A DNA stretch of 64,000 nt from the NCBI GenBank assembly GCA_965197745.1, contig CBDANS010000006.1:96001-160000 (forward strand), written 5' to 3'. The first letter of the stretch is position 1. Each line of letters starts with the position of its first letter. A program made the position numbers and the translations under genes. Origin of the DNA: Opitutales bacterium. GTDB lineage: Bacteria > Verrucomicrobiota > Verrucomicrobiia > Opitutales > PNEW01. Under the pieces are notes generated by a model. That model did no database searches, was not told the origin of the DNA, and saw only the letters and a program-made list of their open reading frames with translations. Shown here piece after piece: positions 43,229-59,769 of the stretch.

Positions 43229-43487
43229 AAGATTCGCTCAGTATTCAGCATGCTAATCAACAGTCATTTATGTAAACCTTGAATATTATATTCTCTGAAA
43301 ACTAAAGATAGATCAGACATACAATGCACATTGAATTACAAACCATGCATATTTAGTGTTCACTGATTCATATACTGATACTTTGAATATAATATCAGCT
43401 AATTAGCCCATTGAAGCCTGACCCCCTTTTCCTTTTCTAGATCTATTAAAAATTGACATCAGCTATTGGGGAAGTTTGAATCTTAAA

Positions 43488-43595
43488 ATGCTTCGGTAGA
43501 GTGCACCCAGGTCCGCACGGAAAGGGCAATGCCCATCTACTAAAATTAAGGTGATCAATAATTGGTTCAGCCTAATTGCGGAATATGGCTGAAAA
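43488..43595 (+). ncRNA. Putative structured 5' leader RNA, copy A
   Basis: Pairings GTAGA/TCTAC, GGGC/GCCC, TTCAGCC/GGCTGAA; TCCGCA (43512-17) complementary to loop TGCGGA (43577-82); TTGACA at 43453. Confidence 0.65.
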
Positions 43596-43610
43596 TATGA
43601 ACGCTAACCG

Positions 43611-44261
43611 ATGCATGAGCCCAAGCCGAATCTCTCGAATCTAAAAAAACAAGCGAAGCTTATTTTTCGACAGCATAAGGAGAGATACTATCCTGTATGC
43701 GCACGGATAAGAAAAGCGCTTCCGCGATTTTTAGATAGCAGTGATAAGGAAATACTGGACTCTTCTTTCGCATTGCATGATGCCCAGGAAATAATCGCAC
43801 GCGAATACGGATTCAATAAATGGGAAGTGCTGAAAAATAACAAAATAACCATGAATAAATCAAATTCTCAAAATAATCATAATAAATATCTATGTGAAGC
43901 ATATCCTCAGTTGTTCGTAAGTGATGTCACACGCACAGCGAACTTTTATAAAGAAAACCTTGGGTTTGAAATCCAGTATTTATATGGAAAACCTCCCTTT
44001 TATGGAATGGTGAAAAGGGATAATATAGGATTGAACATCAGGTATGTTTGCAATCCCCCCATGGATCAAAATGAAAAGGAAAAAGAACAATTAATAAGTG
44101 CCAACATTCCTGTAAATGGAGTGAAATCGCTATTTCTTGAATTCAAGGAAAAGGAAGTTGATATTTTTCAGTCGTTAAAGTCACAACCTTGGGGCTGTGT
44201 AGATTTTATCATCAAAGACCCTGACGGAAATTTATTATTATTTTCAAATCATCCTGATTAA
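43611..44261 (+). CDS. LKKQAK-type N-terminal helical domain fused to a VOC/glyoxalase domain
   Basis: PNLSNLKKQAK...DAQEIIAREYGF..W, then LFVSDV..FY..LGF...QPWG..F..KDPDGN. Confidence 0.87.
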   Translation: MHEPKPNLSNLKKQAKLIFRQHKERYYPVCARIRKALPRFLDSSDKEILDSSFALHDAQEIIAREYGFNKWEVLKNNKITMNKSNSQNNHNKYLCEAYPQLFVSDVTRTANFYKENLGFEIQYLYGKPPFYGMVKRDNIGLNIRYVCNPPMDQNEKEKEQLISANIPVNGVKSLFLEFKEKEVDIFQSLKSQPWGCVDFIIKDPDGNLLLFSNHPD

Positions 44262-44340
44262 AAGACCTCACCATTCACTTGAGACGTACTGAGGCCAAAC
44301 GAAGCAGAAAAGGGTCTTAGTGCGATTTATTGTGGGTGCC

Positions 44341-45441
44341 TCATTCTTTAATATCCAGGATCCCGGCAACGGACGTTCGGATCTGAACCAGATGTTCCCG
44401 TACCCATTCAGGATTAAACCGCTCCGTCCCCATCCGGAGGGGACAACTGGCCATGGCCCCACTTATCCAGCCGATTTCCTGTGGCGCATCGCGGATCAGT
44501 AGTATGTCGTTTCCCGTCATACCGTCCGGTACCGGCCTCACTTCAGCGTAGGCATCTAGGAAGGTGCGCCAAAGCATCTTGGACCGATCCAGGTCATCCT
44601 TTATCCGTAAAATGCGACGGACCTGGGAAAGTTCGAACCCCCTTGAAATGAACCTGGCATTTCCAAAATCAAAGAACACGACAGTACCGTCAGACCGCCG
44701 CCGAATGTTCGACGGCACGAGATCATCATGACACCAGCCCATATCTTGTTCATCCCTGCCAACAAGTAGTTCACTCAATCGTCTTTTCAGTTTACGGCGG
44801 AGGTCTTGCAGTTCAGCGTAGTCTTCTTTGTAGGCAAGTCGCCTGGCAAAAGGAAGGTAATCATGCTCTTCACGAAGCACGGGATAATCCGTATCGATCA
44901 GGTCTCCTGCTGTATGTAGTTGCGCCACTGCGACGCCCAATTGACAAGATGCTTCCTCACTTACAGTAAAGCTTGTCACCGGTACTTCTTCAAACAGCAA
45001 TGCGGCACGGGATCCTTCGGGCGCGATCACTTCTGATGCGTATGACCCGTCATTTCGGTAGACCGCTGGGACGACACTTGCGCCATGAAGCGCGAGATCT
45101 GCGACGAAAAGAGCCTCGGCTTCAGCCTGATCGATGGATACTGGAGGACGGTAGATCTTCAGGTAGTAGGTGGGTCCAGCTGTGTTTACATGATAAACAT
45201 CCGAGTCACCGCGATAGTGAAAGGTGCAGCCAAGAGCTTCGGTGATATCGTACTCTGAATCAACACGCTGTAGAAGCACCTCTTCATCAAGAACTGAAGA
45301 CTGCGCTGGAAACACAGTGCGGTCATCAAGCTGGCCACTGTTTGAGATGTCGAGACCGTATCTTACGTGTCTCCCTTCAAGAACGCGTGACTTCTCAACG
45401 TCCTGCCTTGTCTCTTCTTTCTTCTTATTTTCTTTCTTCAT
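44341..45441 (-). CDS. APH/homoserine kinase type II-like phosphotransferase
   Basis: YYLKIY, A.LH, CHDDLVPSN, FFDFG. Confidence 0.85.
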   Translation of the reverse strand: MKKENKKKEETRQDVEKSRVLEGRHVRYGLDISNSGQLDDRTVFPAQSSVLDEEVLLQRVDSEYDITEALGCTFHYRGDSDVYHVNTAGPTYYLKIYRPPVSIDQAEAEALFVADLALHGASVVPAVYRNDGSYASEVIAPEGSRAALLFEEVPVTSFTVSEEASCQLGVAVAQLHTAGDLIDTDYPVLREEHDYLPFARRLAYKEDYAELQDLRRKLKRRLSELLVGRDEQDMGWCHDDLVPSNIRRRSDGTVVFFDFGNARFISRGFELSQVRRILRIKDDLDRSKMLWRTFLDAYAEVRPVPDGMTGNDILLIRDAPQEIGWISGAMASCPLRMGTERFNPEWVREHLVQIRTSVAGILDIKE

Positions 45442-45451
45442 TTAGTATCCT

Positions 45452-46276
45452 TTACAATTCTGCCCGCATAAAGCGTTCCCACAGTTCCTCTGCGATCCGA
45501 GAGGAATTCGTTCTTATGCCCTATCGCTGAAAGTAATCGCACAGGTTTCTAATGTCGCGCGTCAGCAACATGCAGGCACTGGAATCGACGCGGGGGTCAA
45601 CAGCCTGCGGAAAATCGATGATACGCAGTTCTCCATTATGATAGAGAATATTGTAAGCAGACAGGTCGGCATGTATCCTGTTGCAACGAAGCAGCAGTTC
45701 CACGTTGTCCATTGCCACATCATAGAGATGCAGCGCTTCTGCTTTCGAGAGAGTCACATTGCTCAACATTTGTCCCGGTCGAACACCCGTGCCTATGTAC
45801 TCCATCAGGATGATATCACCGGAATGCGCGTACGGCCTGGGCACGTTTGCGCCTTCTTCATAAAGCAATTCCATTGTTAACCACTCTCGCGCGATCCACA
45901 TGCTGTGGGCTGATCGTCTCCCGGTCCGTGATCGCCTCTTCATCGCGCGTGACAATCGCAGGTCATGAACGTTGTGGTGATCCTGATACTCCATGGCGCT
46001 GTTAAACGCTCTGAACTTTTGCGCCAGATAGACTTTGGCCGCGAGAAGATCAACTCCTACGGAAGTCCTCGCTTTACAGAGATAAACGGTTGCCTCCTTA
46101 CCGTCGTTAACCACACCGATGACCTCCGCAACCATGCCATCGAAAGACGTCAGAATAGCGTCCTTCTCACGGTCTGCTAGAAATTTTCTCTTGAATCCAC
46201 CCTCTGAGAGTGAATCACTGTCTCTTCTTCTATCATGCCGATGATTCGGCATGTTTTTCTGTTCTGATCGTGTCAT
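45452..46276 (-). pseudogene. RIO-family Ser/Thr kinase with in-frame TAG (45521-45523) near the C-terminus
   Basis: GKEATVY, AAKVY, MEYIG, IHADLSAYNIL, IIDFPQAVD; after TAG reads GIRT..IAEELWERFMRAEL to TAA 10 nt before the next gene. Confidence 0.8.
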
Positions 46277-46323
46277 GCTGTATTTCCATAGTAGGTAAAA
46301 TTTAAAATTGGACCCGTGGCATG

Positions 46324-46398
46324 AAAAAAAGCCATGGGTCTGTGTCACGCCCATGGCTTGGATCAGAAAAAGAAAAAGCCGTTCCAGGCGGAACGGCT
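46324..46398 (-). terminator. Two tandem intrinsic terminator-like hairpins in the RIO kinase leader
   Basis: Minus strand: agccgttcc-gcct-ggaacggct-ttttcttttt and aagccatggg...cccatggctt-ttttt. Confidence 0.75.
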
Positions 46399-46428
46399 AA
46401 ACTGCTCTTGATAGCACCCTGGTGCTAC

Positions 46429-46488
46429 CTAGTGCCGAAACCTACCGGGGAGTGACAACGCGAAGAATTGTCTCTTTGCTGCATTCAT
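46429..46488 (-). CDS. Putative 19-aa leader peptide MNAAKRQFFALSLPGRFRH
   Basis: SD GGAGAG, ATG 46488, TAG 46429-46431, directly upstream of the hairpins. Confidence 0.5.
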   Translation of the reverse strand: MNAAKRQFFALSLPGRFRH

Positions 46489-46750
46489 GATTATCTCTCC
46501 TTTATTGGTGTAGGTTTCGGGTTCCTGGTTAATGTTCATAATGCTTTATGTGATCGATGTATCGATGTCAATAAAGATCCCTTGCGACAATCTTCACGGA
46601 CGTGACGACGCGCGTCCCTCCATTTTTTTTTCGGGGGGCCATGTAATGTCTGTCGGCCATAGCCGCGCGTTTGCGGGGCGACGGCTGATCGTGGCCGCGA
46701 AAGAGTATAGAAACATAAAGGGGCTACGACAGGTTTACACCTGAGATGAG

Positions 46751-47508
46751 CTAATTATCTTCGACAGGTTTAAATTCAAAGAAAAAAGGTTGGTAAGCAC
46801 GTGCTGTAACCGGTTTACCGCGTTTCATTGGTGGTTGAAATTTCCAGTCTTTGATCGCGGTGAGTGCGGCAATCGCAAAATAGTCATTCGATGAAGATTT
46901 AAGCCCCGGGGCTCTGACGTTACCCTTGGAATCAATAAAAAATTCAACCAGTACCTGCCCGCTTGCTTCCACATCCCACATTTCTTTCGGAAAAACAGGT
47001 GAACTCGATTTAATTACTTTTGGTTCAAAATCCAATTCGTTAATATCTTTAACCGTAAAATATTGTCTATTTATCGTTTTATTACCGATCATCGCTTCAT
47101 CAATGATTGATGCATTGAATATACACCTCCACCTCTCTCCAAATTGTAAGATACTTTAACAAATACTCGACTCGAGTAAGCCACTCCATCGACAATTCTT
47201 GGAGCAAATTTCCATTGCTTAATCGCTCTAATCGAGGAACGGGCAAAAGCAAGGTGAGAGGTTGCAAATTCTACAAAATCATACTGTTGTCCCGTGTCAT
47301 CGACGATAAATACGATAATCGCAAATCCTTCAGTAATACCTGTATGGGCAACACTCGGTGGTAAATAAGGATTAACTGCTTTAAGCACCTGCAGGTCTCG
47401 ATTATTATTATCAGTCTTTTCGCTTTGACCCAACACGGGGAGATGAAAGCAAAAAATTATCAAAATAAAAATGAGGTGGGAGGGGAATAATCTGTAATAG
47501 GATTTCAC
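46751..47508 (-). CDS. Tandem TonB C-terminal domain protein, split into two ORFs (47089..47508, 46751..47092)
   Basis: Both parts have P..P...G...F..D..G and A+..WKF.P...G motifs; ATGA overlap; possible frameshift. Confidence 0.7.
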
Positions 47509-47837
47509 GGATAAAATACAGGGTTAAAACATAATCTAAGTTAATATCTTTAAATACACAACCCATGGCACGTTATAGTTCCACGATTGCAGAGCGACCG
47601 CGGCTGACCCCTTTTGGGCAATCATTACCGGACGCGACGAAGCGCGTCCCTCCATTTTTTTTCGGAGGGCCACGTAATGCCTGTCGGCCATAGCCGCGCG
47701 TTTGCGGGGCGACGGCTGATCGTGGCCGCTGATTTACAATTTTATAAATGGACAATAACAAAAGAAAGCAGCCACGATGTCACCTATTAGCTCATAGCTC
47801 TTGCTTAATCATGATGGACGCATAACAATAAAAATTT

Positions 47838-48161
47838 ATGCCTGCATTACGCAATCGATTAGAAAACGAATTAAGAAAACTGGAGGGGGTTGACGTTGCA
47901 TTGTATAAAGATACGAATCTGATGTGTGTCTATTATGGAGGCAAAGAATTTGCGCATTTTCAAGACGACAACGATTTGGATATACGATTATCTCAGAAAT
48001 TTATAAAACGAGAAAGCCTTACTCCTATTCATGATTCCAAATATCATCCGAATCGTTCAAGGAAATCCAGGTGGATGGAAATACGGTTTAAGAATGCAAA
48101 GCAAGTGGATGACTTGATTCGACTTATTAAGCGACTGATAAAAGAAGAATTAGCGCTATAA
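47838..48161 (+). CDS. Small luciferase-like (DUF5519-type) protein
   Basis: GKEFAHF...LDIRL motif, 107 aa. Confidence 0.65.
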   Translation: MPALRNRLENELRKLEGVDVALYKDTNLMCVYYGGKEFAHFQDDNDLDIRLSQKFIKRESLTPIHDSKYHPNRSRKSRWMEIRFKNAKQVDDLIRLIKRLIKEELAL

Positions 48162-48192
48162 GTAAAACACTCAGGAATTATGGGGGAAAAAA

Positions 48193-49632
48193 ATGTCCAA
48201 AAAAAATATCATGCTGATCATTTCGGACCAGCAACGCACGGACACCATCGGCTGTCTCAGTCTCACCCCTTGCCGCACTCCCCATATAGATGCATTAATT
48301 GATCGCGGGGTTATTTTCGAGAAGACCATCACCCCCACCCCCGTCTGCACCCCGGCGCGGGCTTCCATCTTTACCGGTCTCTACGCCCATCAAGCGAGGG
48401 GAACCTTTGCCAAAGATCACATCGGTCCTCTCCGCGATGACCAGATGACTTCCGATGCGACAGACATGCTGCTCAGCGATTACTCCTGTCGAGAAAAACC
48501 GTTGCTCACTGACGCACTTAAAGCAGCAGGTTATTACTGTTGCTATGCGGGCAAATGGCATCTCGGCAACGATATTTTTGATAACTGGTTTGAACACCAC
48601 CACGGCGAGACAGACCAGCAGTATATTGATTGGGCCAGCGAGCAGGGGTATCCGGACGCCTGGTCTTTAAGCGATTGGTCGGTTCGCAGTCACCGTGATC
48701 CACCGATGTCTATTCCCCTGGCAAAAGAAAATAAAATTCCTCCCGAGATTACTAACGACGCGTGGATCGCTGACCTTGCCATCGATATGATTGAACAGCG
48801 CCCGAAAGATAAACCCTTCATGGCTGTCTGCAGTATGATCGGACCTCACCCGCCATTCAAGATACCGGAACCGTATTTCAGCATGTATGACGACCAGGAG
48901 GTTCCCGAGCCCCCCAATTTCCACCTCACTGAAGGAAAACCAAAATGCAAGAAAGAGAGTTTCTATCACAAACTGTGGGAGGACCATGGCTCGGATTGGT
49001 CGGCGTGGGAAAAATCCGTGACGACTTACTGGGGATTTGTCACCCATATCGACGACCAGGTCGGACGTCTTGTCCAATGCCTCAAGGACGAGGACGTTTT
49101 TGAGGACACCCTCATTATTTTCTGTAGCGACCATGGCGAAATGCTGGGCCAGCATGGTCTGTGGCACAAAATGCAGGCATATGAGGAGTCGCTTCGCGTG
49201 CCGCTGGTTTTCAGCGCGCCATGGATCAAATGCGATAACCGTTCAACCGCGCTTAACTCGCTGATCGATATTGCCCCGACAATTCTTGGCGCTGCCGGCT
49301 GTTCGATTCCGGATACTTACGAGGGCGAGGACTTATCGGCGCTATTCAACGGGCAGTGTGACCGGACCGCTCGAAGCGTCCTCTTCAGCGAGCACAAACC
49401 GGATGGAGATTATCACCTCGAGACTGATTGGAGAATGGTGACGGACAATAAGATTAAGTACATCTGGAATCGGGGTGAGTGCGAAGAGCTTTACGATCTG
49501 GAATCAGATCCCTGGGAAAAGGTTAATCTAGCTGACAACGATCGGAATAACGAACAATTGGCCTTCTATCGAACCCAACTCGGTGAGTGGATGGAGAAAA
49601 CGAAAGACCCCCTGCACGAGAGTTTTAAATGA
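48193..49632 (+). CDS. Formylglycine-dependent sulfatase
   Basis: NI..IISDQQR, CTPARASIFTG, GKWH, SDHG, ELYDLESDPWE. Confidence 0.94.
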   Translation: MSKKNIMLIISDQQRTDTIGCLSLTPCRTPHIDALIDRGVIFEKTITPTPVCTPARASIFTGLYAHQARGTFAKDHIGPLRDDQMTSDATDMLLSDYSCREKPLLTDALKAAGYYCCYAGKWHLGNDIFDNWFEHHHGETDQQYIDWASEQGYPDAWSLSDWSVRSHRDPPMSIPLAKENKIPPEITNDAWIADLAIDMIEQRPKDKPFMAVCSMIGPHPPFKIPEPYFSMYDDQEVPEPPNFHLTEGKPKCKKESFYHKLWEDHGSDWSAWEKSVTTYWGFVTHIDDQVGRLVQCLKDEDVFEDTLIIFCSDHGEMLGQHGLWHKMQAYEESLRVPLVFSAPWIKCDNRSTALNSLIDIAPTILGAAGCSIPDTYEGEDLSALFNGQCDRTARSVLFSEHKPDGDYHLETDWRMVTDNKIKYIWNRGECEELYDLESDPWEKVNLADNDRNNEQLAFYRTQLGEWMEKTKDPLHESFK

Positions 49633-49830
49633 CCCGTTTTTGATTTTCATTGTGAGGTCCCGGATTTTTTAGCTTCGCCGCAACATTTATACTTAAATGT
49701 CGATGTGGAATGACTTATGTCGCCATTAGACAACTGATAGATTTTGAGTTTGAACTGATATTTGATAAATAAATACCAGTTAATTTACTCACTATCTATA
49801 ATACTGAATCTCTACACGCTCACCACAGGT

Positions 49831-50196
49831 ATGAAGAGCATAATTATAATCGAAGATGACCAAAGCTACCGTTCCATGTTATGCGGAGCGCTGGAAGATG
49901 AGGGATATAAAGTATCTACAGCTGAAAATGGCCTAATAGCGATAGATGTTCTCAAGACATTAACGCCTGATCTTATAATTACCGATGTCATAATGCAAGG
50001 AATGGATGGTTTTGAAGTAATCACACAAGTAAAGAATCAGAATCCTGATATTAAAATTATTGCCATTAGCGGAGGTGGAATGGCTGGACCTAAAACATAT
50101 TTAGAAATCGCTGAAGATTTAGGTGCAGATTACACGATTACAAAACCGTCAACGTTAAAAGAATTTCTAAGTGCAGTGAACAAACTGCTTAAATAA
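49831..50196 (+). CDS. Single-domain response regulator (receiver)
   Basis: IIEDD, TDVIM..MDG, AISGGG, KP. Confidence 0.9.
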   Translation: MKSIIIIEDDQSYRSMLCGALEDEGYKVSTAENGLIAIDVLKTLTPDLIITDVIMQGMDGFEVITQVKNQNPDIKIIAISGGGMAGPKTYLEIAEDLGADYTITKPSTLKEFLSAVNKLLK

Positions 50197-50308
50197 AATG
50201 GAAGAGGTTAATACCGAAATAGCATGAAGCGAATATGTAAGTGAATGAGAAAACGAAAGACCCTTGCACGAGCGTTTTAAATGACCCGATTCTGAATTTC
50301 TTATAAAG

Positions 50309-51109
50309 TCATGTGACTTTAACTTTCCTCCACCATTCTCCTTCAGCCCCTTCAGGAATGTATGGCGGTATTGACATTATTAATCGGTTCTCATCTACAA
50401 ATTTAATGTGAAATGACTCGTGCTTGCGTGTTTCGTAACCAGGAACCTGAGACAAGAATGGCCAGTTGTCAAAAGTAGATGGAGTCTCAAGCCGCGCTCC
50501 AACGTTCACACCGAATTCATTAAATAATTTATAAATCTCTGTATCACTAAAACTGACACCTTGTGATGGTGCTCTTGGGCGTTCAGTACCCGCTCTCATT
50601 ACACCGTAGTGCCCTTGAGTCACAAGAGACATCCATCGTCCGTGTTTATCTTCAGATTCCCAAGCACCAGCCAGGGGTGTATCACCAGCTCCGCTGAGCT
50701 TTCGCCAGTTTTCCTCAACAATCTTGCCATCAGGAAACGCTCGCTTGCATAAACAATGATTATCCTGAAAATTTACAGTATATGAAAGCGAGATTCCTTC
50801 GATGCGTGGATCACTGGCCATTTCAATATTATGCTCTGCCAACCATCCTTCCTCTAACTCAGTCCACGAACAGCTCCCTCCTATTGCGTAAAAGTGTGGA
50901 TACATTTCGACCGCTTCGGCCTCAGTGGGAGGCCAAGTTGCTGGCGGTTGACACTTTCCCTGGGTAAGAAGTTCAATAAAATGATCCCCTGTGTACACGG
51001 AGAAACCTGCCGCAGATCTGATAGCAACTGTTGTATCCCGTAATGGCACGAAATCCACATCTTCATCATCAGTGAGCATCTGCCAAAAACCATTCCATGG
51101 TTGTTTCAT
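50309..51109 (-). CDS. Hypothetical protein with two similar halves
   Basis: PWNGFWQ and PLAGAWE begin two ~130-aa related units. Confidence 0.7.
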   Translation of the reverse strand: MKQPWNGFWQMLTDDEDVDFVPLRDTTVAIRSAAGFSVYTGDHFIELLTQGKCQPPATWPPTEAEAVEMYPHFYAIGGSCSWTELEEGWLAEHNIEMASDPRIEGISLSYTVNFQDNHCLCKRAFPDGKIVEENWRKLSGAGDTPLAGAWESEDKHGRWMSLVTQGHYGVMRAGTERPRAPSQGVSFSDTEIYKLFNEFGVNVGARLETPSTFDNWPFLSQVPGYETRKHESFHIKFVDENRLIMSIPPYIPEGAEGEWWRKVKVT

Positions 51110-51217
51110 ATCTTTGGATCCTATTTATGTTTCTCTACCTAAAATACTCAATTTATGAATATGTGAAAAGTCGAGAAATGTCACTGTAAGTTGATATGCC
51201 GCGCAGAAGAACTGGAA

Positions 51218-51278
51218 GGGGTCAGGCTTTGCAAACTGGCATTTTTTAATTATATGCCAGTTTGCAGAACCTGACCCC
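51218..51278. repeat. Palindromic repeat (second copy 54953-55019; related 42771-42832)
   Basis: ggggtcagg..tgcaaactggca...tgccagtttgca..cctgacccc. Confidence 0.8.
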
Positions 51279-51284
51279 ATTTTT

Positions 51285-52700
51285 TCACTCGGCATACCCA
51301 TGATAGTTTGCGATCGCCAGGCCGGCGGCAATGCCGGTGAAGGTATCGAATTCAATCAGCTTTCGAGGGAATATTTGCTGCAACAGTTCTTGAACGGGTG
51401 GAAGCTTCGAAGAGCCACCGGTGCAGATCACTGCGTCGATTCCATCAACGCTGCAACCTGACGATAAGAGCAGTTCCTCAATCGCATCACTGATCCTCGC
51501 CAACATCTCTTCCATGTATTGGCGCAACTCCTGTCGGGTGATGGTCACTCGGAGCTCGAGCTCGGGCACCCGGATGACGGATTCATGATCCTTGGTGAGC
51601 CCGATCTTGGCCTCCTCTATGGCCTGAAAGACCCTGTAGGATTGGTTCATAGAGATCAATAGCAGCAATCGACTTAGTTTCTGCTTCGTCTTCCCTTTTT
51701 CACGCATACCATGGGTGATCAATTCTCTGAGTTCACCCCGGTTGAGTTCGTGTGTATGCTGCCAGATGAGCAGCCGTTCGGCGAATTCCCCGAATCGAAA
51801 CGCTACCTTCTTTTCATCGCCGACACTCTTGCTTGTAATCAATGTTCGCTCGCCCAGTTCCGGGAATATGGCTCTCCGGTATATCAGCTTATCGATATCA
51901 TCCCCGCCCAGTTCGAGTCCCAGCGTGCCCAGAATCTTGAATGCCTTCGTGGTTGTCTTCAAAAGGCAAAGGTCAAGCGTGCCCCCGCCAAAGTCGAAGG
52001 TCAGATAGGATCTGTCGGGGCGCGTTTCGCCCCGATGCAGGAAGCTCAGAGAGGCTGCGACCGGCTCCGGATAAAAGGAAGCTTTCGAGAATCCTGCGAA
52101 ATCACACGCTTCTCCCATTCGGCTTAACGCGACCTCATTCGCTGTTGCCGAATCCCCGCGATAATTAACCGGTCGACCCACATGCGGCGTAAGCAGCGGG
52201 CCGCCCGCATGGGTCTCGATCCCCTTGCGGATCTCTTCCAGAATTGGGGTCGCGAGTGCCACCACGCGCAGGGTCCTGTCGAATACGTTGATGGCATTCA
52301 GCGAAGCATCCCCAAGCCATGTCTTGATACTTCGAAAAAGCCGGCTCGGGAGATGTGAATCGGTAAATGCGTGCACCTTAACCCAGTCCTCAAAGTAACC
52401 TGCCATGGTATCTATGCTCAAAAGAAATTCACCCACCTCTTCCTTCTCTAATTGAATCCTCCTTCCTCTGTTGTCCTCGAGATAGGATTCTATCGCATGC
52501 TGTCCGACACGGGGGAAAAAGTCGCGGTTGAGATACAATGCGCTCGGCAGTACTGCGGGAACGGCGGCAGCGGCGTCCAGGCCGAGCATCCGAAGTTTTT
52601 TTCCGTCAAATAGCGCAACCGATGAATTCGTCGTACCAAAATCAACGCCCACTGCTATTCTGCTCGAGCTGCGGTGAAGATGGGAAGGGCTTAAGGGCAT
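51285..52700 (-). CDS. Hsp70-family protein (YegD-like)
   Basis: GVDFGTTNS, EPVAA, DFGGGTLD, TGGSS; lacks the DnaK substrate-binding domain. Confidence 0.88.
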   Translation of the reverse strand: MPLSPSHLHRSSSRIAVGVDFGTTNSSVALFDGKKLRMLGLDAAAAVPAVLPSALYLNRDFFPRVGQHAIESYLEDNRGRRIQLEKEEVGEFLLSIDTMAGYFEDWVKVHAFTDSHLPSRLFRSIKTWLGDASLNAINVFDRTLRVVALATPILEEIRKGIETHAGGPLLTPHVGRPVNYRGDSATANEVALSRMGEACDFAGFSKASFYPEPVAASLSFLHRGETRPDRSYLTFDFGGGTLDLCLLKTTTKAFKILGTLGLELGGDDIDKLIYRRAIFPELGERTLITSKSVGDEKKVAFRFGEFAERLLIWQHTHELNRGELRELITHGMREKGKTKQKLSRLLLLISMNQSYRVFQAIEEAKIGLTKDHESVIRVPELELRVTITRQELRQYMEEMLARISDAIEELLLSSGCSVDGIDAVICTGGSSKLPPVQELLQQIFPRKLIEFDTFTGIAAGLAIANYHGYAE

Positions 52701-52932
52701 GCGGGTAAAAGATTAGGTGGCGCCAACTGTCCTGAAAACAGAGGGATTAACCTATACAAGCTTTTGGCCGCTATTGTTCAAGAATAAAATTACATAAATA
52801 TTTTACAACCAACCTCTTATAAATTAATACTAACATCGAAAAACAATCATGTCAAGTTCTGACTTGGCCCTATTTGTCGCATGCACACAGTGAAAAATGA
52901 AAAGAGAATCAAAACGCGGTCTGATCAATCAC

Positions 52933-52960
52933 TTGACAAAGAACGGTATCGGGTTAACTT
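52933..52960 (+). promoter_or_regulatory. Sigma70-like promoter shared with 57176-57203
   Basis: TTGACAaagaacgg(t/c)atc(g/c)ggtTAAC(t/c)T near-identical at both loci. Confidence 0.65.
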
Positions 52961-52969
52961 TTTTCATAG

Positions 52970-53078
52970 ACGCTCGGAGGGAGCGGCCAGTCCACGGAAA
53001 GAGTTAACCTCACCTCTCTCGAATCCATACAGTCAATTGGACCTATGGACCAGCTTGTCAGGTGGACAACAAGCGCAA
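52970..53078 (+). ncRNA. Putative structured 5' leader RNA, copy B
   Basis: GTCCAC (52990-95) complementary to loop GTGGAC (53062-67) in hairpin GCTTGT/ACAAGC; GAG/CTC and TCCATA/TATGGA stems. Confidence 0.7.
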
Positions 53079-53097
53079 ATTGGAAAGTAGGTTATAT

Positions 53098-54936
53098 ATG
53101 AAGCAGTCGATTGCTGCAAAAGCAAATCTGGACCAGCTGAAGAAGCAGGCCAAAACGCTGATCAAAGCGTTTAATTCGAATGACACCGAGGCGGCCGCAC
53201 GCCTCGCGGCGACACATCCCCGCTTAACCGGCCTGGATGTAACGGAAGTTCTGAAACAGAAGCTCGCCCTTAATGACGCACAATGGGTTATCGCCCGTGA
53301 GCATGGATTCAAAGATTGGACGGAACTCAAACATGAAAAACTCCGAGCTGAGTACTTTGAAGCCGCTCATCGTGGTGATACCGCACTACTCCGGAAACAG
53401 ATTAAATGCTGGCCGGATTTGATCCAAAAAAAGATGGAAAACGGGCTCAGTGCTCTTCATCTATCCATTGTCTCCGGCCATGCCGACGCTGTTCGGTTCT
53501 TACTCGAATGCGGAGCAAATCCAACAAACGGGTATGGGTATGGTCAAGGAACGCGTTCAACAACTCCGCTGCAACTGGCTAGAGATGCTGAACATGCAGA
53601 AGTAATTACTGTTATTGAAGACTAGCTGAAACACAGGGTTGAGGCCACGACGTTGGAGACACCGTTGATTACGGCCGTTGAAAATAAAGACTTCGAAACC
53701 GTCAGGAAGTTGCTGACCGAGCATCCTGAGAGTGTCAATGAAATCAACGAACGAGGTGGAACTGCTCTCATCCGGGCTTCGCATCTTAACGATCTGGAAT
53801 GTGTGCAACTGTTGCTCGATAAAGGAGCGGACGCCGCGTATCTTTCACCCAATCCGGTGGCCGCCGATTTTTTGCGCAACGGCCACGCCGCTATCCATCG
53901 GGTGGTCCATCACCGATGTCAGGATCAGGAGAAAAGTAGGACGATTCTACGCATGCATCTCGATCATGGAGCGCCCTATGACCATGAAATCGCTGTATGG
54001 ATGGGCGACCTCGACACCGTCATTGAAAAGACCGGGAATAACAATAAGCGAAAGGATGAAGCGCTCATTGCCGCGGCGTAAGTGGGTGAACTGCCCATCA
54101 TTCGCTGGCTCCTGGATCACGGAGTGGATCCCAACACTCCGCGGGACATCGATATTGGCGATTCGATCTTTCACGAGGAAGCAGCAGCTGTCTGGGAAGC
54201 AGCGGCCCAAGGTCACATTGAAGTGGTTCGCGAACTGCTTGCTCGCGGAGCAAAGCCTAACGAGGTCCTCTACGCAAGCGGCTGGCCGGTAACAATCGCA
54301 GATACATACGGGCATACCGACGTCAAAGAGCTGCTTATCGCGCACGGGGCGCCGCCTCCGATTGATTGGTATGAAGATTCGTTGGAGGATATAAAGAACA
54401 AGCTACCCATGCAGATGGAAAAACTCCATGAAGATTGGGCCATGCCTATCGCTGGCCGCACCGGCCGCGTTGATCTGGTCGAATACCTGCTGAGTCTTGA
54501 TCCCCGGATCGATGACGAGATGTGGACAAAGTGTCTGCAATATACCTTGTACGCTATATCTCCGAATAGTCCACAAATACTCAGTTTGCTTATCGACCAC
54601 AGGGCGAATCCAAACGCAATTAACGAACAGGGCGAGTCCGTTCTGCATTACTTATGTATGCACCATTCTCGCGAGAATCCAGCCAAAGTTGAGAACGCCC
54701 GTATGTTGGTCGAAAAAGGCGCTAAAATCAACGTCCTCGATCATGTTAAGAAGTCGACACCACTCGGCTACGCCACCCGTGAAGGCGAATACGATTTGGC
54801 CAGGGTATTCCTTGAACTGGGTGCCGATCCTAACCTCGGTGGTGAAGATTGGGCGCACCCGTTACGCTGGGCAGAGAAAAAAGGCCATAAGAAGATCGCT
54901 GAACTATTAAAGGCACACGGTGCCATTATTGAGTAA
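53098..54936 (+). pseudogene. LKKQAK-type N-terminal domain plus ankyrin repeats, with in-frame TAG (53623-25) and TAA (54079-81)
   Basis: Three consecutive ORFs in one frame; ANLDQLKKQAK...DAQWVIAREHGF..W; ankyrin motifs SALH, TPL, LL..GA.PN. Confidence 0.85.
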
Positions 54937-55040
54937 TCATAAGGGTGATCTGAAAAGGGTCGGGCGATGCAAACTGGCATATATTTAAAAAATACCAGTT
55001 TGCAGAACCCGACCCTTTTTGATTTCTTCGAGTAAAAGAT

Positions 55041-55436
55041 ATGAAAAATCTCAAAGCAATTATGCCGTTCTTCGTCGTTGAGAACGTTTCAGAAACTATT
55101 GAATTCTATACCGGCAAGCTGGGATTCAACATATCTTTTCAACAGACACTTGATGGAGATGATACACCATCATTTTGCATTCTTAATCGTGATGAGATCT
55201 CAATTATATTTAAGCGTATCGGAATGGGGATTACAGCTACACCCAACTCGATGAACCACGAGTGGGCCAGGTGGGATGCCTACATTGTAACTGAAGATCC
55301 GGACGCACTTTTCGAAGAATTAAAGGATAAAGGAGTGAATTTTCATCGTGAATTGGAAAACACCGAAGATGGGTTAAGGGCTTTTGAAGTTCGAGACAAC
55401 AACGGATATGTATTATGTTTCGCGCGATTGCTCTAG
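55041..55436 (+). CDS. VOC/glyoxalase/bleomycin-resistance family protein
   Basis: FY..KLGF, WDAYI...DPDAL, GLRAFEVRDNNGYVLCF. Confidence 0.88.
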   Translation: MKNLKAIMPFFVVENVSETIEFYTGKLGFNISFQQTLDGDDTPSFCILNRDEISIIFKRIGMGITATPNSMNHEWARWDAYIVTEDPDALFEELKDKGVNFHRELENTEDGLRAFEVRDNNGYVLCFARLL

Positions 55437-55689
55437 TATGAATATCTCGGTTAATTACCGCGTTACCTGTTTGATGTATGACATTATAAGAATCGAGAAA
55501 TCGAAACGGGTCTACGCGAGATAATCTGAATAACGCGTTTATAAAATCTATTGCTCCGATCGTTTAATAGCGCATTATTCAAAATCGGTTGTGCACCTAC
55601 TCACAATACTTTATTGGTACGCGAGACTGGTTGGAGATCATTCGAAAAGTAAGAATTGTTGAAATGACTTCAAAAAACCCACCCTATTA

Positions 55690-56709
55690 ATGAGCTTGCG
55701 AGTGAGTATAGATGAGGTGCTCGCATATCGTTACCGAGCTAACCATCTCGATAAACGACTAAAAGCTGGTTCAGAACCTTTCGCTGCACGTGCGGGGTTG
55801 CAAGACAGTGGACCTCGTGCTGGTGTAATATCCCTGCATGCCCGTGTTAATGGTGTCACAGCCTCTTTATGGGAACAGCCAGACATGGCTCAGGTATGGG
55901 GTCCACGTGGTGCGATCTACATTGTGCCGCGCAATGATATAGCCGTCTTCACACTTGGTCAGCTGCCTCGGGATTCTGGTTCTCTAAAGTTGATAGAAAA
56001 AGCGGTTGCTTCGATTAAAAAAATATTAGCTGGCCGCACCCTACGAAAATCTGAGGTGCTTTCCAGATTTCGTTCTCTGAATCTTGGTGTAGACTTTTTA
56101 CCAGCCGGAAAAACTGGATCTATCCTTCCTCGCTGGGATGCTCGTGATACTCTTATACGCGCTGTCGATGCACCTGACGCAGATATTGAAGAGTGTAGAA
56201 TCGAATTGGCCCGCCGGTTTTTTCATTATTTAGGTCCATCCACATTGAAGGGTCTCAAGCAGTGGGCAGGTATTTCGCGAGAGGATGCCCAGATGACATT
56301 CTCATCTTTATCCAACGAACTGTTGAACATAGAAGTTGACGGGCACAAAGCGTGGTGTCTTGAGTCGGATGTGGACGATCTCAACAAACCACGTGCTAAA
56401 AGAGGGGTTAGATTACTTCCTGCGGATGATCCGTATTTAAATTACCGGACTGCAAAAGAATTTCTTGTGCCTGAACATAAATTTCAATTGCAGCTTTGGC
56501 CGAAAGCTCCTCCTCCTGGAGCTTTGCTTGTCGATGGTATTATCTCGGGCATATGGAGAAGGAATCAATGGCATTTTGTCTTTAAACCGTGGAGAAAAAA
56601 AATTTCTAATAACGTAGCTGACGCCGTAACCGAAGAAATATCTCGATTTCCACTTCAGGGAGATCCGACTAAGGCGAGAGTGGAGTGGTTATCACCATTG
56701 AAGAGGTGA
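55690..56709 (+). CDS. AlkZ/YcaQ-like winged-helix DNA glycosylase family protein
   Basis: GLQDS, SLHARV, GPRGA, R.F...GPST...W.G, VRLLP..DPYL, LVDG...G.W. Confidence 0.75.
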   Translation: MSLRVSIDEVLAYRYRANHLDKRLKAGSEPFAARAGLQDSGPRAGVISLHARVNGVTASLWEQPDMAQVWGPRGAIYIVPRNDIAVFTLGQLPRDSGSLKLIEKAVASIKKILAGRTLRKSEVLSRFRSLNLGVDFLPAGKTGSILPRWDARDTLIRAVDAPDADIEECRIELARRFFHYLGPSTLKGLKQWAGISREDAQMTFSSLSNELLNIEVDGHKAWCLESDVDDLNKPRAKRGVRLLPADDPYLNYRTAKEFLVPEHKFQLQLWPKAPPPGALLVDGIISGIWRRNQWHFVFKPWRKKISNNVADAVTEEISRFPLQGDPTKARVEWLSPLKR

Positions 56710-56772
56710 ATTGTTTAAAATATATTATAGAAAATAACCCTAATCCAATATTGTTAGAAGAAGGAGTTGATT

Positions 56773-57141
56773 ATGAAAATCACTGAATTCGCATTTGTAG
56801 GACATCCAGTAGAGAGTATGAAGCGTGCGCAGAAATTTTACGAAGAAGTGCTCCGACTTCCACCACCAAAAGTCCTCGGTAAAGGATGGTTTGAATACGA
56901 AATAGGCCCCTACACTCTCGCTATCACTACTGCGTGGTCTGATAATAAACCACCTGAACGACCAAGTTGTGGACTTGCTCTTGAAGTCGAAGACTTTGAC
57001 GAAGCTATCTAGCATATTAAGGACTGCGGTGTTAGCTTTGATATTGAACCTGCCGAGTACGAGTATTGTTATAGTGCGGTCATTACGGATCCCGATGGCA
57101 ATCAGTTCGGTATTCATAAGAGAAAACCAGGTAAATGTTAA
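56773..57141 (+). pseudogene. VOC-family protein with in-frame TAG (57010-57012)
   Basis: RA.KFYEEVL, ALEVEDFDEAI*HIK...ITDPDGNQFGIHKRK to TAA 57141; AAGGAG SD. Confidence 0.85.
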
Positions 57142-57212
57142 ATCATCGCGATATAATAGGAGTCCGTTCAATAACTTGACAAAGAACGGCATCCGGTTAA
57201 CCTTTATGATAG

Positions 57213-57314
57213 TTGCTCAGAGGGAGCCTCCCAGTCCGCGGTAAGGGTTTAACCCACCTTTAGAAGAAGTCTATCAACCTTCTTTCTGCCTGCAACTGCG
57301 GACACCAGGCGCAA
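57213..57314 (+). ncRNA. Putative structured 5' leader RNA, copy C
   Basis: GTCCGC (57234-39) complementary to loop GCGGAC (57298-303) in hairpin GCCTG/CAGGC; GGGT/ACCC and AGAAGAAG/CTTCTTTCT stems. Confidence 0.7.
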
Positions 57315-57332
57315 TAATAGAGAGGAGGTCGT

Positions 57333-58523
57333 ATGACCAGGAAGTTACCAGAGAAAGCCAATCTTGAGCATCTCAAGAAACAGGCAAAGCAGTTATTAAA
57401 AGACCACAAAGCAGGTGAGCAACAGGCCTGCAATCGTATCAGGGAATATCATCTCCGACTGTCCAAATTACCGGAAAAGGACATCCCCGGTGCTGAATTC
57501 TCCTTGCAAGATGCACAACTCACGGTCGCGCGCGAGTACGGTTTTTCCAGTTGGCCAAAAATGGTTTCCGCGATTAAATCGACTGATAAGCGGAAGCTAA
57601 TATTTAATGCTTCTAATCGTGGAGATCTCGATGAAGTCAAAAGACTGATTAAATCTTACAGCTTCGCGAAAGGGGAACTGGACGAAGCTTTATGTCGTGC
57701 CACATGTAATATGCGGGGTGATAAGGAGTCAGATTTTCGCGCTTGCGCGGATTACCTCATTGACCGTGGTGCAGACGTCAATGCTGAGAGTGAGGATAAC
57801 TACGGCCGTATTATTCTCGGATCGTGTGAATTCCTAAATCCTGTAGGACTGAAATACTTAATTGATCATGGGGCTATAGTGAATGTGCCTGAGCGCATAA
57901 CCAAGTACCCTGCTAATAATACGCCATTGAATATGGTGCTGGGTACATATTCTCGTAAACCAGCTGAGAAACACCGATGTCTCGACCTGCTCATAGAAGC
58001 CGGGGCCCACTACGAGGATGGCCCGGTTATGGATATCCACATGGGACGCGATGATAATCTTAAAGAACGACTGAATATGAATTCTCATTTGCTGCATGCT
58101 CAATTCGATCTCAATTACGGTAATTATCTAACGCTTTTCGGAGTGAGCTTATTACATATCGCAGCTGAGTATATTGAGAAAGCGTGTGTCGATGTCCTCC
58201 TTGATCATGGAGCGGATATAGATGAGAAAGCAATAATCGGAAAGAATGGCGTGGGTGGACAAACACCTATTTACCATGTAATCGGGGGCAACCAGGGTAA
58301 ATGCTACCCGTTGTTTGAACACCTGATGGAGAAGGGACCTGATCTAACCGTGAAAGCCTATATTCAAGGGAATGTCGTTATTAACCATGAAAAGGATCTT
58401 GCTTACGACGAGGTGCTGGAGCTGTCCCCTTTAGGCTATGCCCTGAGGTACGAGCACGAACCTACATGGCGTGAAGCATCTCGGGAAGCAGCGAAACTAC
58501 GTGAACTCGGCGCGCCGATGTAA
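57333..58523 (+). CDS. LKKQAK-type N-terminal domain plus ankyrin repeats
   Basis: LPEKANLEHLKKQAK...LQDAQLTVAREYGFSSW; LLHIAAE, LLDHGADID, GQTPI. Confidence 0.88.
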   Translation: MTRKLPEKANLEHLKKQAKQLLKDHKAGEQQACNRIREYHLRLSKLPEKDIPGAEFSLQDAQLTVAREYGFSSWPKMVSAIKSTDKRKLIFNASNRGDLDEVKRLIKSYSFAKGELDEALCRATCNMRGDKESDFRACADYLIDRGADVNAESEDNYGRIILGSCEFLNPVGLKYLIDHGAIVNVPERITKYPANNTPLNMVLGTYSRKPAEKHRCLDLLIEAGAHYEDGPVMDIHMGRDDNLKERLNMNSHLLHAQFDLNYGNYLTLFGVSLLHIAAEYIEKACVDVLLDHGADIDEKAIIGKNGVGGQTPIYHVIGGNQGKCYPLFEHLMEKGPDLTVKAYIQGNVVINHEKDLAYDEVLELSPLGYALRYEHEPTWREASREAAKLRELGAPM

Positions 58524-58617: not shown

Positions 58618-59769
58618 ATGAACACCGACCAGTCACCGACTAAGTCTTACCGCGCCACTGCCTTTGCCGACTCAAAGCCCGAGCTGGCGACGCCGGGAGC
58701 TACGCCGGAGCGGCTTGCCTACCTGGAGGAGCATGGTTTCGTCATCATCACCGACTTTGTCGACAACCCATGGATCCCCATTCTCCGCGATGCAGGGCGC
58801 CGCGTTACCGAGGCATGCTTGCCCGAGCATGGGTACAGCAAGATCGACTGTTCAAAAGGCTACGTGCACCGGACGGAACATCATGAGCCGTGGGCAATCC
58901 GGGGCATCATACATCCTGCCTTCGGAGAGCCCTGCTTTGCCGACTTCCTGGGCTCTGAAGATTTCCTCAGGTTCGCCCATTCCTGGTGTGACGGGCTCGA
59001 ACCGGCTGATATGGTAATGATTAACACCCTGCTGTGGTGTAATCCCCGTCAGCACGAGAATGGTCCCAGCTGGCACCGGGACGGGACGTGGTGGGGCGAC
59101 GGAAGACCCTATTTTTCGCAGGAGGCGGACCGGGGGGACACCCCTGAGGATTACTCCGAGGAAGTCGAAAAAGTCCGCTGGGAAGAAATCCGCGCCAATA
59201 ATAAAAAATCGATCACGGAGCGCAACAGCGTCACCATCTTCCTGGCGCTGGCCGACGACGAGTGCCACGAGCTGATACCGGGCAGCCACAATCGCTGGCG
59301 CACCCCGTTCGAGCACGACGTGCTCCTGCCGAAAACGATGAAAGACCAGGGGGTGCCATACACGCCCAGCTGGGACGGTGTCTCGCCGCTGCCCAGCCAG
59401 GTTGCTATCCGGCTCAAAGCGGGGGAAGCGTTCATCCGCATCGGGACGACGATCCACACCGGGCACACGGTGCCTGATCGCGAGCGCAACTCCTTGTTAG
59501 TCGGCTGGTCGAAGTGGTCGGGTCCGTCCAGTGTGAAGCCGGCGGTGGCAGATGCGCGCCACGCCTGGCAACTGGATCCAGCCGTGCGTGAAGCGCTGCC
59601 GCACGCGTGGATGAAGACAGCATGGGACCGCTGGGCGGAGACCCAGCAGCTGGGGAATACGCTTGAGGACCGGTATGCAGAGTATGACGTTGAGCGCATC
59701 AAAGCCGGCGAGGTGGTGGGTTGGCGCAGTGAGCTGGAGCAACAAGCCGCGGCAGCTGGCGAAACCTGA
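58618..59769 (+). CDS. PhyH-like dioxygenase
   Basis: LEEHGFVII, WHRD, LIPGSH, IHTG; GC-richer than flanks. Confidence 0.78.
   Translation: MNTDQSPTKSYRATAFADSKPELATPGATPERLAYLEEHGFVIITDFVDNPWIPILRDAGRRVTEACLPEHGYSKIDCSKGYVHRTEHHEPWAIRGIIHPAFGEPCFADFLGSEDFLRFAHSWCDGLEPADMVMINTLLWCNPRQHENGPSWHRDGTWWGDGRPYFSQEADRGDTPEDYSEEVEKVRWEEIRANNKKSITERNSVTIFLALADDECHELIPGSHNRWRTPFEHDVLLPKTMKDQGVPYTPSWDGVSPLPSQVAIRLKAGEAFIRIGTTIHTGHTVPDRERNSLLVGWSKWSGPSSVKPAVADARHAWQLDPAVREALPHAWMKTAWDRWAETQQLGNTLEDRYAEYDVERIKAGEVVGWRSELEQQAAAAGET

Follow-up and report, generated by a model that had tools for sequence, protein, structure and literature searches.

A widespread pseudoknotted leader RNA tied to the genes of one small basic protein domain and probably acting on their translation

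Introduction

Why should three genes in one stretch of bacterial DNA, whose products all begin with the same ~80 residues, each be preceded by a similar leader with the look of a folded RNA? The stretch, called the window throughout, is the whole 64 kb that was analyzed, positions 96001-160000 of the source contig in a 4.45-Mb assembly (45% G+C) of an Opitutales bacterium. We use the name N-dom for the first ~80 residues common to the three open reading frames (ORFs), with the motifs LKKQAK and DAQ..IAREYGF..W. A preliminary description, made from the letters alone, had proposed that the leaders are a structured cis-acting RNA that includes a pseudoknot and might be a riboswitch, a ribozyme, or a protein-binding leader, and covariation across phyla supports the proposed structure. 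It is very probable from our results that the leader is a real cis-regulatory RNA acting on translation. The best explanation that we can offer, put forward as a tentative one, is a widespread leader family that controls the translation of N-dom genes and has the N-dom protein as its autorepressor.

Results

The leader and N-dom occur together

A tblastn search of the whole assembly with N-dom returned five loci, the three of the window and two more at C7:1562964 (+ strand) and C7:92988 (- strand), and two further leaders lie outside the window, at C7:1562820 (+) and C7:93103 (-). A covariance model of the 5′ domain of the leader (R1), built from these five leaders, matched the assembly in exactly five places, identical to the five tblastn loci. 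The preliminary description had seen the motif before no other gene, and this is true genome-wide, as all five N-dom genes have a leader and R1 has no match elsewhere. The three leader cores that it had quoted are present as written and where it had placed them, and the three window leaders are true homologues.

To survey other bacteria, one genome per species was scanned for N-dom, which gave 582 pattern matches and 527 confirmed relatives; the best 80 of the 527 were kept with 600-nt flanks. These 80 loci are those closest to the query, and ankyrin fusions predominate among them. R1 matched upstream in 73 of the 80, at 17-54 bits and on the coding strand without exception, with the matches ending ~25-145 nt upstream of the start codon. 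With a full-length covariance model (R2), 72 of the 80 loci scored 70-110 bits and one, L051, just 13 bits; the E-values of both models are rough. The motif is thus present upstream of most of the homologues examined. With taxa as recorded, the carriers among these best 80 loci span more than 10 phyla: Acidobacteriota, Planctomycetota, Verrucomicrobiota, Lentisphaerota-like Victivallales, Latescibacterota, Gemmatimonadota, Chloroflexota, Dormibacterota, Poribacteria, Actinomycetota (Kribbella), and Pseudomonadota (Paraburkholderia, Caballeronia, Variovorax, and alpha- and gammaproteobacterial metagenome-assembled genomes [MAGs]).

The seven loci without an R1 match (L029, L034, L036, L039, L040, L044, and L046) are mutually near-identical, come from Latescibacterota and "Gemmatimonadetes" MAGs, and have in common a different leader of ~150 nt (positions 400-600), which still yields no model match with the filters off. 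The Shine-Dalgarno (SD) sequence of these loci (GAAAGGAG) lies inside a CACU...AGUG hairpin of that leader, which may be a remote relative of the family beyond the reach of the models.

The same association is seen in three further sets of genomes. Among 61 genomes related to the source, the leader RNA occurs in 6, the source genome included; there are 12 matches outside the source genome, 10 of which run directly into an N-dom ORF; at L103 the N-dom ORF follows after a 44-nt insertion, and the remaining match, at L095, precedes an ankyrin gene with just ~15 residues of N-dom. In five distant genomes (Acidicapsa, Kribbella, Caballeronia, a Planctomycetota MAG, and a Latescibacterota MAG), all 12 RNA matches adjoin an N-dom match, and for 2 of the 14 N-dom genes there is no RNA match at E ≤ 0.01. 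In an even sample of 301 genomes from the source phylum, N-dom is found in 11 genomes, and 16 of its 17 loci outside the source genome have an R2 match (37-90 bits) at the expected position; the 17th is cut by a contig end, so that 16 of 16 assessable loci have the RNA. The tie to the N-dom family that the preliminary description had suggested is therefore close to one-to-one, in its own genome (5/5), among the best loci (73/80), and in the genome samples. Carrier genomes have up to 5-7 copies, and the patchy spread (6/61 and 11/301 genomes) is compatible with horizontal transfer of gene and leader as a unit.

Covariation supports a leader with two pseudoknots

The leader measures about 118-150 nt from its first helix to the AUG and consists of two domains joined by a variable linker. 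The 5′ domain begins with a hairpin of 4 bp (P0) that the preliminary description had missed and whose entire loop is the 5′ strand of the outer stem, P1; this loop and a downstream CCU strand form P1, making an H-type pseudoknot. Inside P1 lie the strand GUCCGCGG (PKa, with a 2-bp CC/GG closing helix), a conserved GRAA, and the small hairpin P2. Beyond the linker, the 3′ domain is formed by a second helix that had been missed, P4, an anti-SD/SD pairing of ~10 bp between a pyrimidine-rich anti-SD strand and the SD region. P4 encloses the last hairpin, P3, and the loop of P3, GCGGAC (PKb), pairs with PKa of the 5′ domain to form the loop-to-core pseudoknot, PK.

Helix support was measured on 76 distinct sequences, 72 of them foreign, in a MAFFT alignment of 77 leaders made with no structure fitting (hereafter unfitted) and in a model-fitted alignment. 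For the whole structure, 88.1% of cells are paired in the unfitted alignment against 77.3 ± 0.4% in shuffles (none of 500 being as high) and 90.2% in the fitted one, with shuffles at 77-78% across alignments, and these shuffle-based counts overstate independence because many rows are mutually related. We regard the signal as real because of the slid-partner controls, in which moving the partners by 1-3 columns leaves 37-50% of cells paired, and because the types of base pair are many and distinct. Both members of the pair have changed in 29 of 35 pairs (unfitted) and 32 of 36 (fitted).

Covariation is strong in every helix named in the preliminary description except its variable middle hairpin, which is not conserved and corresponds to the linker, varying in both length and sequence. 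In the unfitted and fitted alignments, respectively, the proportion of paired cells is 88% and 88% for P1, with both-side changes in all five pairs; 99% and 99.7% for P2 (four of four pairs); 88% and 95% for P3 (five of five); and 98% and 92% for PK (6 of 7 and 7 of 8). The PK counts are free of fitting bias, as PK is in neither covariance model, and its strands vary together widely: GGCCCGC/GCGGGCC, AUCCGC/GCGGAU, GGUUCGC/GCGAACC, GACCGCG/CGUGGUC, and GGCCUGC/GCAGGCC all occur, and one of the leaders outside the window in the source genome has the entirely different pair GACUCAC/GUGAGUC in place of GUCCGC/GCGGAC. P4 is paired in 82% and 89% of cells, with both-side changes in 7-9 of 10 pairs. 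P0 reaches just 75-77% in fixed columns, owing to a one-base shift in ~20 rows; with the register allowed to shift, all four pairs form in 69 of the 76 sequences, against 24.8 ± 3.4 with permuted partners.

RNAalifold, unaided, recovered P1, P2, and three pairs of P3, together with two CC/GG pairs that close the small loop around PKa, and PK may therefore be a loop-loop contact. The single-sequence folding energies of the three window leaders are unremarkable (z of -0.96, +0.55, and -0.42), and their minimum free energy (MFE) folds miss the pseudoknots. Given these ordinary z-scores, the support for the structure comes from sequence comparison and not from thermodynamics.

These counts also bear on whether there is an RNA element at all. 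The similarity of the leaders might be a relic of a recent event in which genes and upstream DNA were duplicated together, or might reflect an operator at the DNA level, and leaders 2 and 3 of the window, possibly recent duplicates, do share a promoter spacer as well. Such an account is scarcely conceivable, as it is contradicted by the covariation counts: compensatory changes are found in every helix across phyla, including pairs 80-90 nt apart, and identity is low in the linker and high at paired and core positions.

A variant of the leader stands before two N-dom genes of the glyoxalase type, at L051:526-597 and L106:533-612. P0, P1, and P2 are kept, a local hairpin replaces the pseudoknot strand, and P3 and P4 are absent. 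L106 is the one N-dom relative among 75 pattern matches on viral contigs; it has no match to the full-length R2 model (10 bits, E of 0.43), and by eye only a P0/P1/P2-like 5′ domain is present.

The Shine-Dalgarno sequence is part of a stable helix

At every locus, the 3′ strand of P4 is the SD sequence (GAAAGGAG or GGAGG), and an in-frame start codon, ATG in all cases but one of GTG, follows 4-8 nt downstream. Folding energies of the P4+P3 segment average -18.4 kcal/mol (range, -10.6 to -28.4). In 55 of 76 leaders, at least 80% of the SD strand is paired in the full-length MFE fold, and no terminator-like sites were found within the three window leaders. With the SD in P4, a stable P4+P3, and no terminator, control of translation initiation is the natural reading. 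In the docked fold, the SD would be locked in P4 and ribosome loading would be blocked, and the hold on the 3′ domain would depend on what binds at the interface of the 5′ domain and PK.

A self-cleaving ribozyme in the 5′ untranslated region (UTR) would share the general look of the leader, a small pseudoknotted fold with conserved unpaired nucleotides. We consider this very improbable, since no Rfam ribozyme family (pistol, twister, hammerhead, hatchet, or HDV-like) was matched, no conserved position stands out as a candidate for cleavage, and the conserved 3′ half sequesters the SD in a helix, a sign of translation control.

Pairings that might compete with P4 were compared with controls. 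The best partner of the anti-SD strand within the 5′ domain is the GGAAAGGG segment, in 50-56 of 76 leaders, and the mean energy of this pairing, -7.5 kcal/mol, is hardly better than the -6.4 kcal/mol obtained with a shuffled 5′ domain; in the Burkholderiales type it equals P4 in strength, at -11.9 kcal/mol. Pairing of the anti-SD with the early coding region (AAGAAG of LKKQAK with CUUCUU) was rejected, its mean being -7.2 kcal/mol against -7.1 kcal/mol for codon-shuffled sequences and its sites being scattered. A pairing of the 5′ strand of P1 with the anti-SD, judged by eye, was given up because no matching anti-SD accompanies P1 variants such as CGG/CCG.

These results have some bearing on a third kind of input, in which the leader would be a constitutive damper of translation, an RNA thermometer, or the target of a general factor (a small RNA, a helicase, an RNase, or ribosomal protein S1). 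An SD-masking hairpin that is stable on its own and the failure to find a conserved alternative fold are both in keeping with this idea. It is nonetheless improbable, as a conserved 5′ domain with two pseudoknots and unpaired nucleotides that hardly vary would be superfluous in a plain damper or a thermometer, and the strict tie to a single protein domain would be left unexplained.

N-dom is a small basic helical domain fused to many partners

No Pfam or NCBIfam model matched N-dom above its cut-off. Three of the five N-doms of the source genome score 10.5-15.7 bits (E of 0.016-0.64) with PF20066 Glyoxalase_8, below its gathering cut-off of 23.7, and the similarity is limited to the first ~50 profile positions, which suggests that a related helical segment is present at the N-terminus of this profile. 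A profile of 61 N-doms searched against 1.84 billion representatives matched 9,945 clusters at E ≤ 1e-3 and 5,122 at E ≤ 1e-10. Among the best 150 representatives, which are proteins of 90 to 1,047 amino acids (aa), the match starts nearly always at residue 1-10. Many of the best representatives were also matched by the profile in two or three separate stretches, and some of these proteins may have the domain in tandem.

The domain is basic, with a median pI of 9.4 and a pI above 9 in 75% of the 61 sequences, and its AlphaFold model consists of five helices (pLDDT of 84.3 and pTM of 0.70). Comparison of this model with the PDB by Foldseek gave no match at E ≤ 0.001, and a wider comparison by VIA-align gave a best Z of 4.0, to a DUF1244 protein, with none at Z ≥ 5, a result with which a shared fold is still possible. 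A sequence search of the PDB returned nothing below an E of 0.02, the ESM Atlas returned "hypothetical protein" clusters only, and a word-index search for homologues found seven close relatives, two of which a source calls "uncharacterized glyoxalase superfamily protein PhnB."

What follows N-dom is diverse. In 67 of the locus proteins, scanned over ~270 aa, ankyrin repeats were found in 47, a BFN nuclease domain in 2, and Lon substrate-binding, DUF1835, AAA lid, and glyoxalase domains in one each; 14 had no match. In 97 representatives, there were 27 with ankyrin repeats, 7 with Clp_N (2 of which also have the ClpX zinc finger), four each with Lon substrate-binding, BFN, and FliG_C domains, two each with FliM and LRR, and one each with FliG_N, T2SSE, receiver, HATPase_c, HTH_34, glyoxalase, and topoisomerase zinc ribbon (the last in a BFN protein); 44 had no match, and the counts exceed 97 because three proteins carry two families. 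N-dom is thus sometimes joined to pieces of housekeeping machines, namely the ClpX zinc finger, Clp_N, the Lon N-domain, FliG, FliM, and T2SSE.

The three leaders of the window and their surroundings

All three window leaders and their genes are on the + strand. Leader 1 (43488..43613; R1, 45 bits; R2, 55 bits) is a divergent copy, with P0 at 43490-43493/43501-43504, P1 at 43496-43500/43536-43540, PKa (TCCGCA) at 43512-43517, P2 at 43524-43534, P3 at 43566-43572 (TTCAGCC) and 43587-43593 (GGCTGAA), and PKb (TGCGGA) at 43577-43582. It is atypical in having a P3 of 7 bp and no clear SD or P4. Its start codon, the ATG at 43611, opens gene 1 (43611..44261), which encodes N-dom (residues 1-80) followed by a glyoxalase/bleomycin-resistance fold (Pfam PF00903, E of 2.5e-10).

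Leader 2 (52970..53100; R1, 56.4 bits; R2, 70.1 bits) has P0 at 52972-52975/52981-52984, P1 at 52976-52980/53013-53017, PKa at 52989-52995, P2 at 53001-53011, P3 at 53053-53057/53070-53074, and PKb at 53062-53069; the anti-SD strand of P4 is at 53042-53051 and the SD strand at 53082-53091. From the ATG at 53098, gene 2 (53098..54936) runs in one frame of ~612 codons encoding N-dom and a long ankyrin array, interrupted in frame by the stop codons TAG (53623-53625) and TAA (54079-54081). A related genome has a homologue (L093) that runs without interruption for at least 501 residues and has 69.5% identity across both of these stops. From the sequence, gene 2 may be a decaying gene, an assembly error, or the source of a truncated 175-aa product.

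Leader 3 (57213..57335; R1, 59.9 bits; R2, 100 bits) is the nearest to the consensus, with P0 at 57215-57218/57224-57227, P1 at 57219-57223/57257-57261, PKa at 57232-57239, P2 at 57245-57255, P3 at 57288-57292/57306-57310, PKb at 57298-57305, and the anti-SD and SD strands of P4 at 57277-57286 and 57320-57329. Gene 3 (57333..58523), which starts at the ATG at 57333, encodes a protein of 396 aa with N-dom and ankyrin repeats whose nearest relative, from an Opitutales MAG, is 80% identical.

As the preliminary description had remarked, a TTGACA lies upstream of each leader, 36-37 nt from the first model position. This -35-like element is at 43453..43458 for leader 1 (36 nt, with a weak -10 candidate, TTGAAT), at 52933..52938 for leader 2 (37 nt), and at 57176..57181 for leader 3 (37 nt), all on the + strand. 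A consensus promoter scan of that strand listed none of the three sites, because the -10 candidates are weak, and both promoter and transcription start of the leaders are inferred. Leaders 2 and 3 have in common the spacer between TTGACA and the motif (52939-52962 and 57182-57205), AAGAACGG(T/C)ATC(G/C)GGTTAAC, which contains the palindrome GGTTAACC. Judged from the letters, this spacer could be a DNA operator or a mere sign of recent duplication.

Between and downstream of the N-dom genes, at 55041-56709 and 58618-59769, lie genes for a stand-alone glyoxalase/bleomycin-resistance-fold protein, an AlkZ-like DNA glycosylase, and a PhyH-like dioxygenase, and this neighborhood hints at a putative defense against DNA-damaging compounds. 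Long near-perfect intergenic hairpins at 51208-51283 and 54931-55039, with chance microRNA-like rows in a permissive Rfam scan, are probably terminators or repeat elements. Two near-identical terminator-like hairpins ~1 kb apart on the + strand (46598-46617 and 47630-47649; GGACG.GACGA.GCGCGTCC followed by CTCCATTTTT) may belong to a small repeated element.

Discussion

What sets the leader

As the trigger of this leader we prefer, with some hesitation, the N-dom protein itself, and a small ligand stands nearly level with it. An RNA that is confined to the genes of one domain, whatever the fusion, has the signature of an autoregulatory operator, and the leader is confined to its candidate binder's genes in the manner of the operators bound by ribosomal proteins S15 and L20 (5/5 N-dom genes in the source genome, 12/12 RNA matches in the distant genomes, and 16/16 assessable loci in the phylum sample). 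N-dom, a small basic domain made of helices, leaves the ribosome ahead of the rest of the protein, and no other role has been assigned to it. The N-dom protein would bind the 5′ domain of its own leader and of the leaders of its paralogues and hold the SD-masked fold, resulting in autogenous translational repression. On this view, the leader and N-dom together would make up a portable cassette for self-limiting expression, to which many different C-terminal domains have been joined.

A related and rather unlikely proposal is that the two form an obligate RNA-protein module, in which nascent N-dom (~80 residues) binds the 5′ domain of its own mRNA and that of its paralogues and locks both the pseudoknot and P4. 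The leader and N-dom would here be either a self-limiting cassette or a stable ribonucleoprotein scaffold, which would have been grafted onto more than 15 kinds of protein-binding or enzyme domains and spread over more than 10 phyla.

Several observations weigh against the N-dom protein as autorepressor. At L095, an 82-bit leader precedes an ankyrin gene that has only the first ~15 residues of N-dom; the two N-dom genes without the RNA in the distant genomes are two of the three N-dom genes of the Kribbella genome; and the seven Latescibacterota and Gemmatimonadota loci with a different leader retain every conserved N-dom residue. From these exceptions it follows that the conserved residues of N-dom serve something besides, or other than, this RNA. 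The fold of N-dom also matches no known RNA-binding domain (the best Z of 4.0 being a weak match with which a shared fold is possible). With regard to the RNA, neither of the two candidate alternatives to P4 stands out as a conserved pairing when compared with its controls, and the stability of P4+P3 on its own leaves the switching on of translation unexplained. Finally, near-invariant unpaired nucleotides and a very wide distribution are equally typical of a small-ligand aptamer.

It is accordingly quite possible, if not our preference, that the leader represents a new riboswitch class, in which a small molecule or ion is bound by an aptamer made up of the 5′ domain and the docked P3 loop, the bound ligand fixes the pseudoknot together with P4 (OFF) or somehow frees the SD helix (ON), and the N-dom genes are the regulon of the ligand. 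Both parts characteristic of a riboswitch are found here: a conserved, structured, covarying domain in the 5′ UTR that could act as sensor, and an expression platform, P4, that encloses a hairpin whose loop pairs with that domain. The core of ~55 nt is multi-helical and doubly pseudoknotted, with near-invariant unpaired nucleotides (G.CCGCGGRAAGGG...CCCACC) in more than 10 phyla; sensor and platform are joined by a covarying tertiary pairing; and variable insertions are found only in the linker and in the internal loop between P3 and P4. The exchange of the PKa strand for a local hairpin in the L051 and L106 variants is of a kind frequent in aptamer families, and the best partner of the anti-SD, at GGAAAGGG in the 5′ domain, would follow the classical anti-anti-SD logic, a point weakened by how little that pairing exceeds the shuffled control. 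The gene content speaks against a riboswitch. At the loci examined, no gene that makes, moves, or uses one metabolite, whether transporter, biosynthetic, or catabolic, stands behind the motif, only N-dom genes with unrelated C-terminal domains, and the gene neighborhoods of the window point to no common metabolite.

Novelty and significance

The preliminary description had not recognized the leader as a named family, and none was found: Rfam 15 (4227 models) gave no match at the gathering score in the whole window, 15 rows at E ≤ 10 between 43300 and 57500 of which none overlaps a leader, and no match at E ≤ 1 in 20 foreign loci that carry the motif. No description of the motif emerged from full-text literature searches by gene context, core sequence, and Pfam name. 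Weinberg et al. 2017 (PMC5737381), who described 224 motifs, mention in their main text neither ankyrin, glyoxalase, or bleomycin nor Acidobacteria, Planctomycetes, or Verrucomicrobia. A preprint that clusters prokaryotic intergenic regions (bioRxiv 10.64898/2026.10.21.760802) mentions a cluster (#630,527) that precedes glyoxalase, flavin monooxygenase, and NmrA-like genes; its text gives no sequence for this cluster and the gene set differs from that of the N-dom family, so we cannot say from that text whether the two overlap. The leader looks like an uncatalogued cis-regulatory structured RNA, and large automated catalogues may already hold it unnamed.

A leader of complex fold that is so widespread and so well supported is rare among RNAs still uncatalogued, and its carriers belong to soil and aquatic phyla poorly covered by earlier searches for RNA motifs. 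There are also culturable carriers (Paraburkholderia phenazinium [L072], P. bryophila [L058], Caballeronia sordidicola [L025], Kribbella sp. [L027], and Acidicapsa dinghuensis [L020]), so the leader can be tested at the bench. It accounts for ~130 nt of conserved sequence upstream of N-dom genes and merits an Rfam entry whether it proves to be a riboswitch or an operator. If it is a riboswitch, it would represent a new ligand class and the first functional clue to an unannotated family of ~10,000 clusters at 50% identity; if it is an operator bound by N-dom, it would reveal a new RNA-binding domain and a modular cassette of gene plus leader that moves as one unit, an unusual and useful part for self-limiting expression.

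Comparison with known systems

The closest precedents for the preferred explanation, with N-dom as autorepressor, are the autogenous pseudoknot operators of the rpsO leader, bound by ribosomal protein S15, and of rpmI-rplT, bound by L20. Like the N-dom leader, these occur only before the gene of one protein and have a pseudoknot that involves or adjoins the SD or start, and their binders, like the candidate binder N-dom, are small, basic, all-helical proteins or domains of ~80-90 residues, with control exerted at translation initiation. They differ in that S15 and L20 are professional RNA binders whose operators mimic rRNA, whereas N-dom is not known to bind RNA and lacks a fold match; in that their leaders are found in narrow taxa and the N-dom leader in more than 10 phyla; and in that the partner of the N-dom leader is a domain fused to many unrelated C-terminal domains.

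On the riboswitch side, the ZTP riboswitch (pfl motif, RF01750), which precedes purine and folate genes, resembles the N-dom leader in its layout, with a 5′ subdomain and a 3′ hairpin connected by a variable linker and a pseudoknot and an expression platform directly after. There is no sequence or model match between the two, their helices and conserved nucleotides differ, and the N-dom leader stands before N-dom genes only, in contrast to the purine and folate genes of ZTP. The SAM-II/SAM-V, preQ1-II/III, and NAD+-II riboswitches are pseudoknotted RNAs that bury the SD in the aptamer, and like the N-dom leader they place the SD or its partner in a covarying helix tied to a pseudoknotted sensor, with no terminator. 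None of their models matches the N-dom leader, and unlike theirs, its SD helix is long (~10 bp), stable alone, and set ~40-90 nt from the sensor core.

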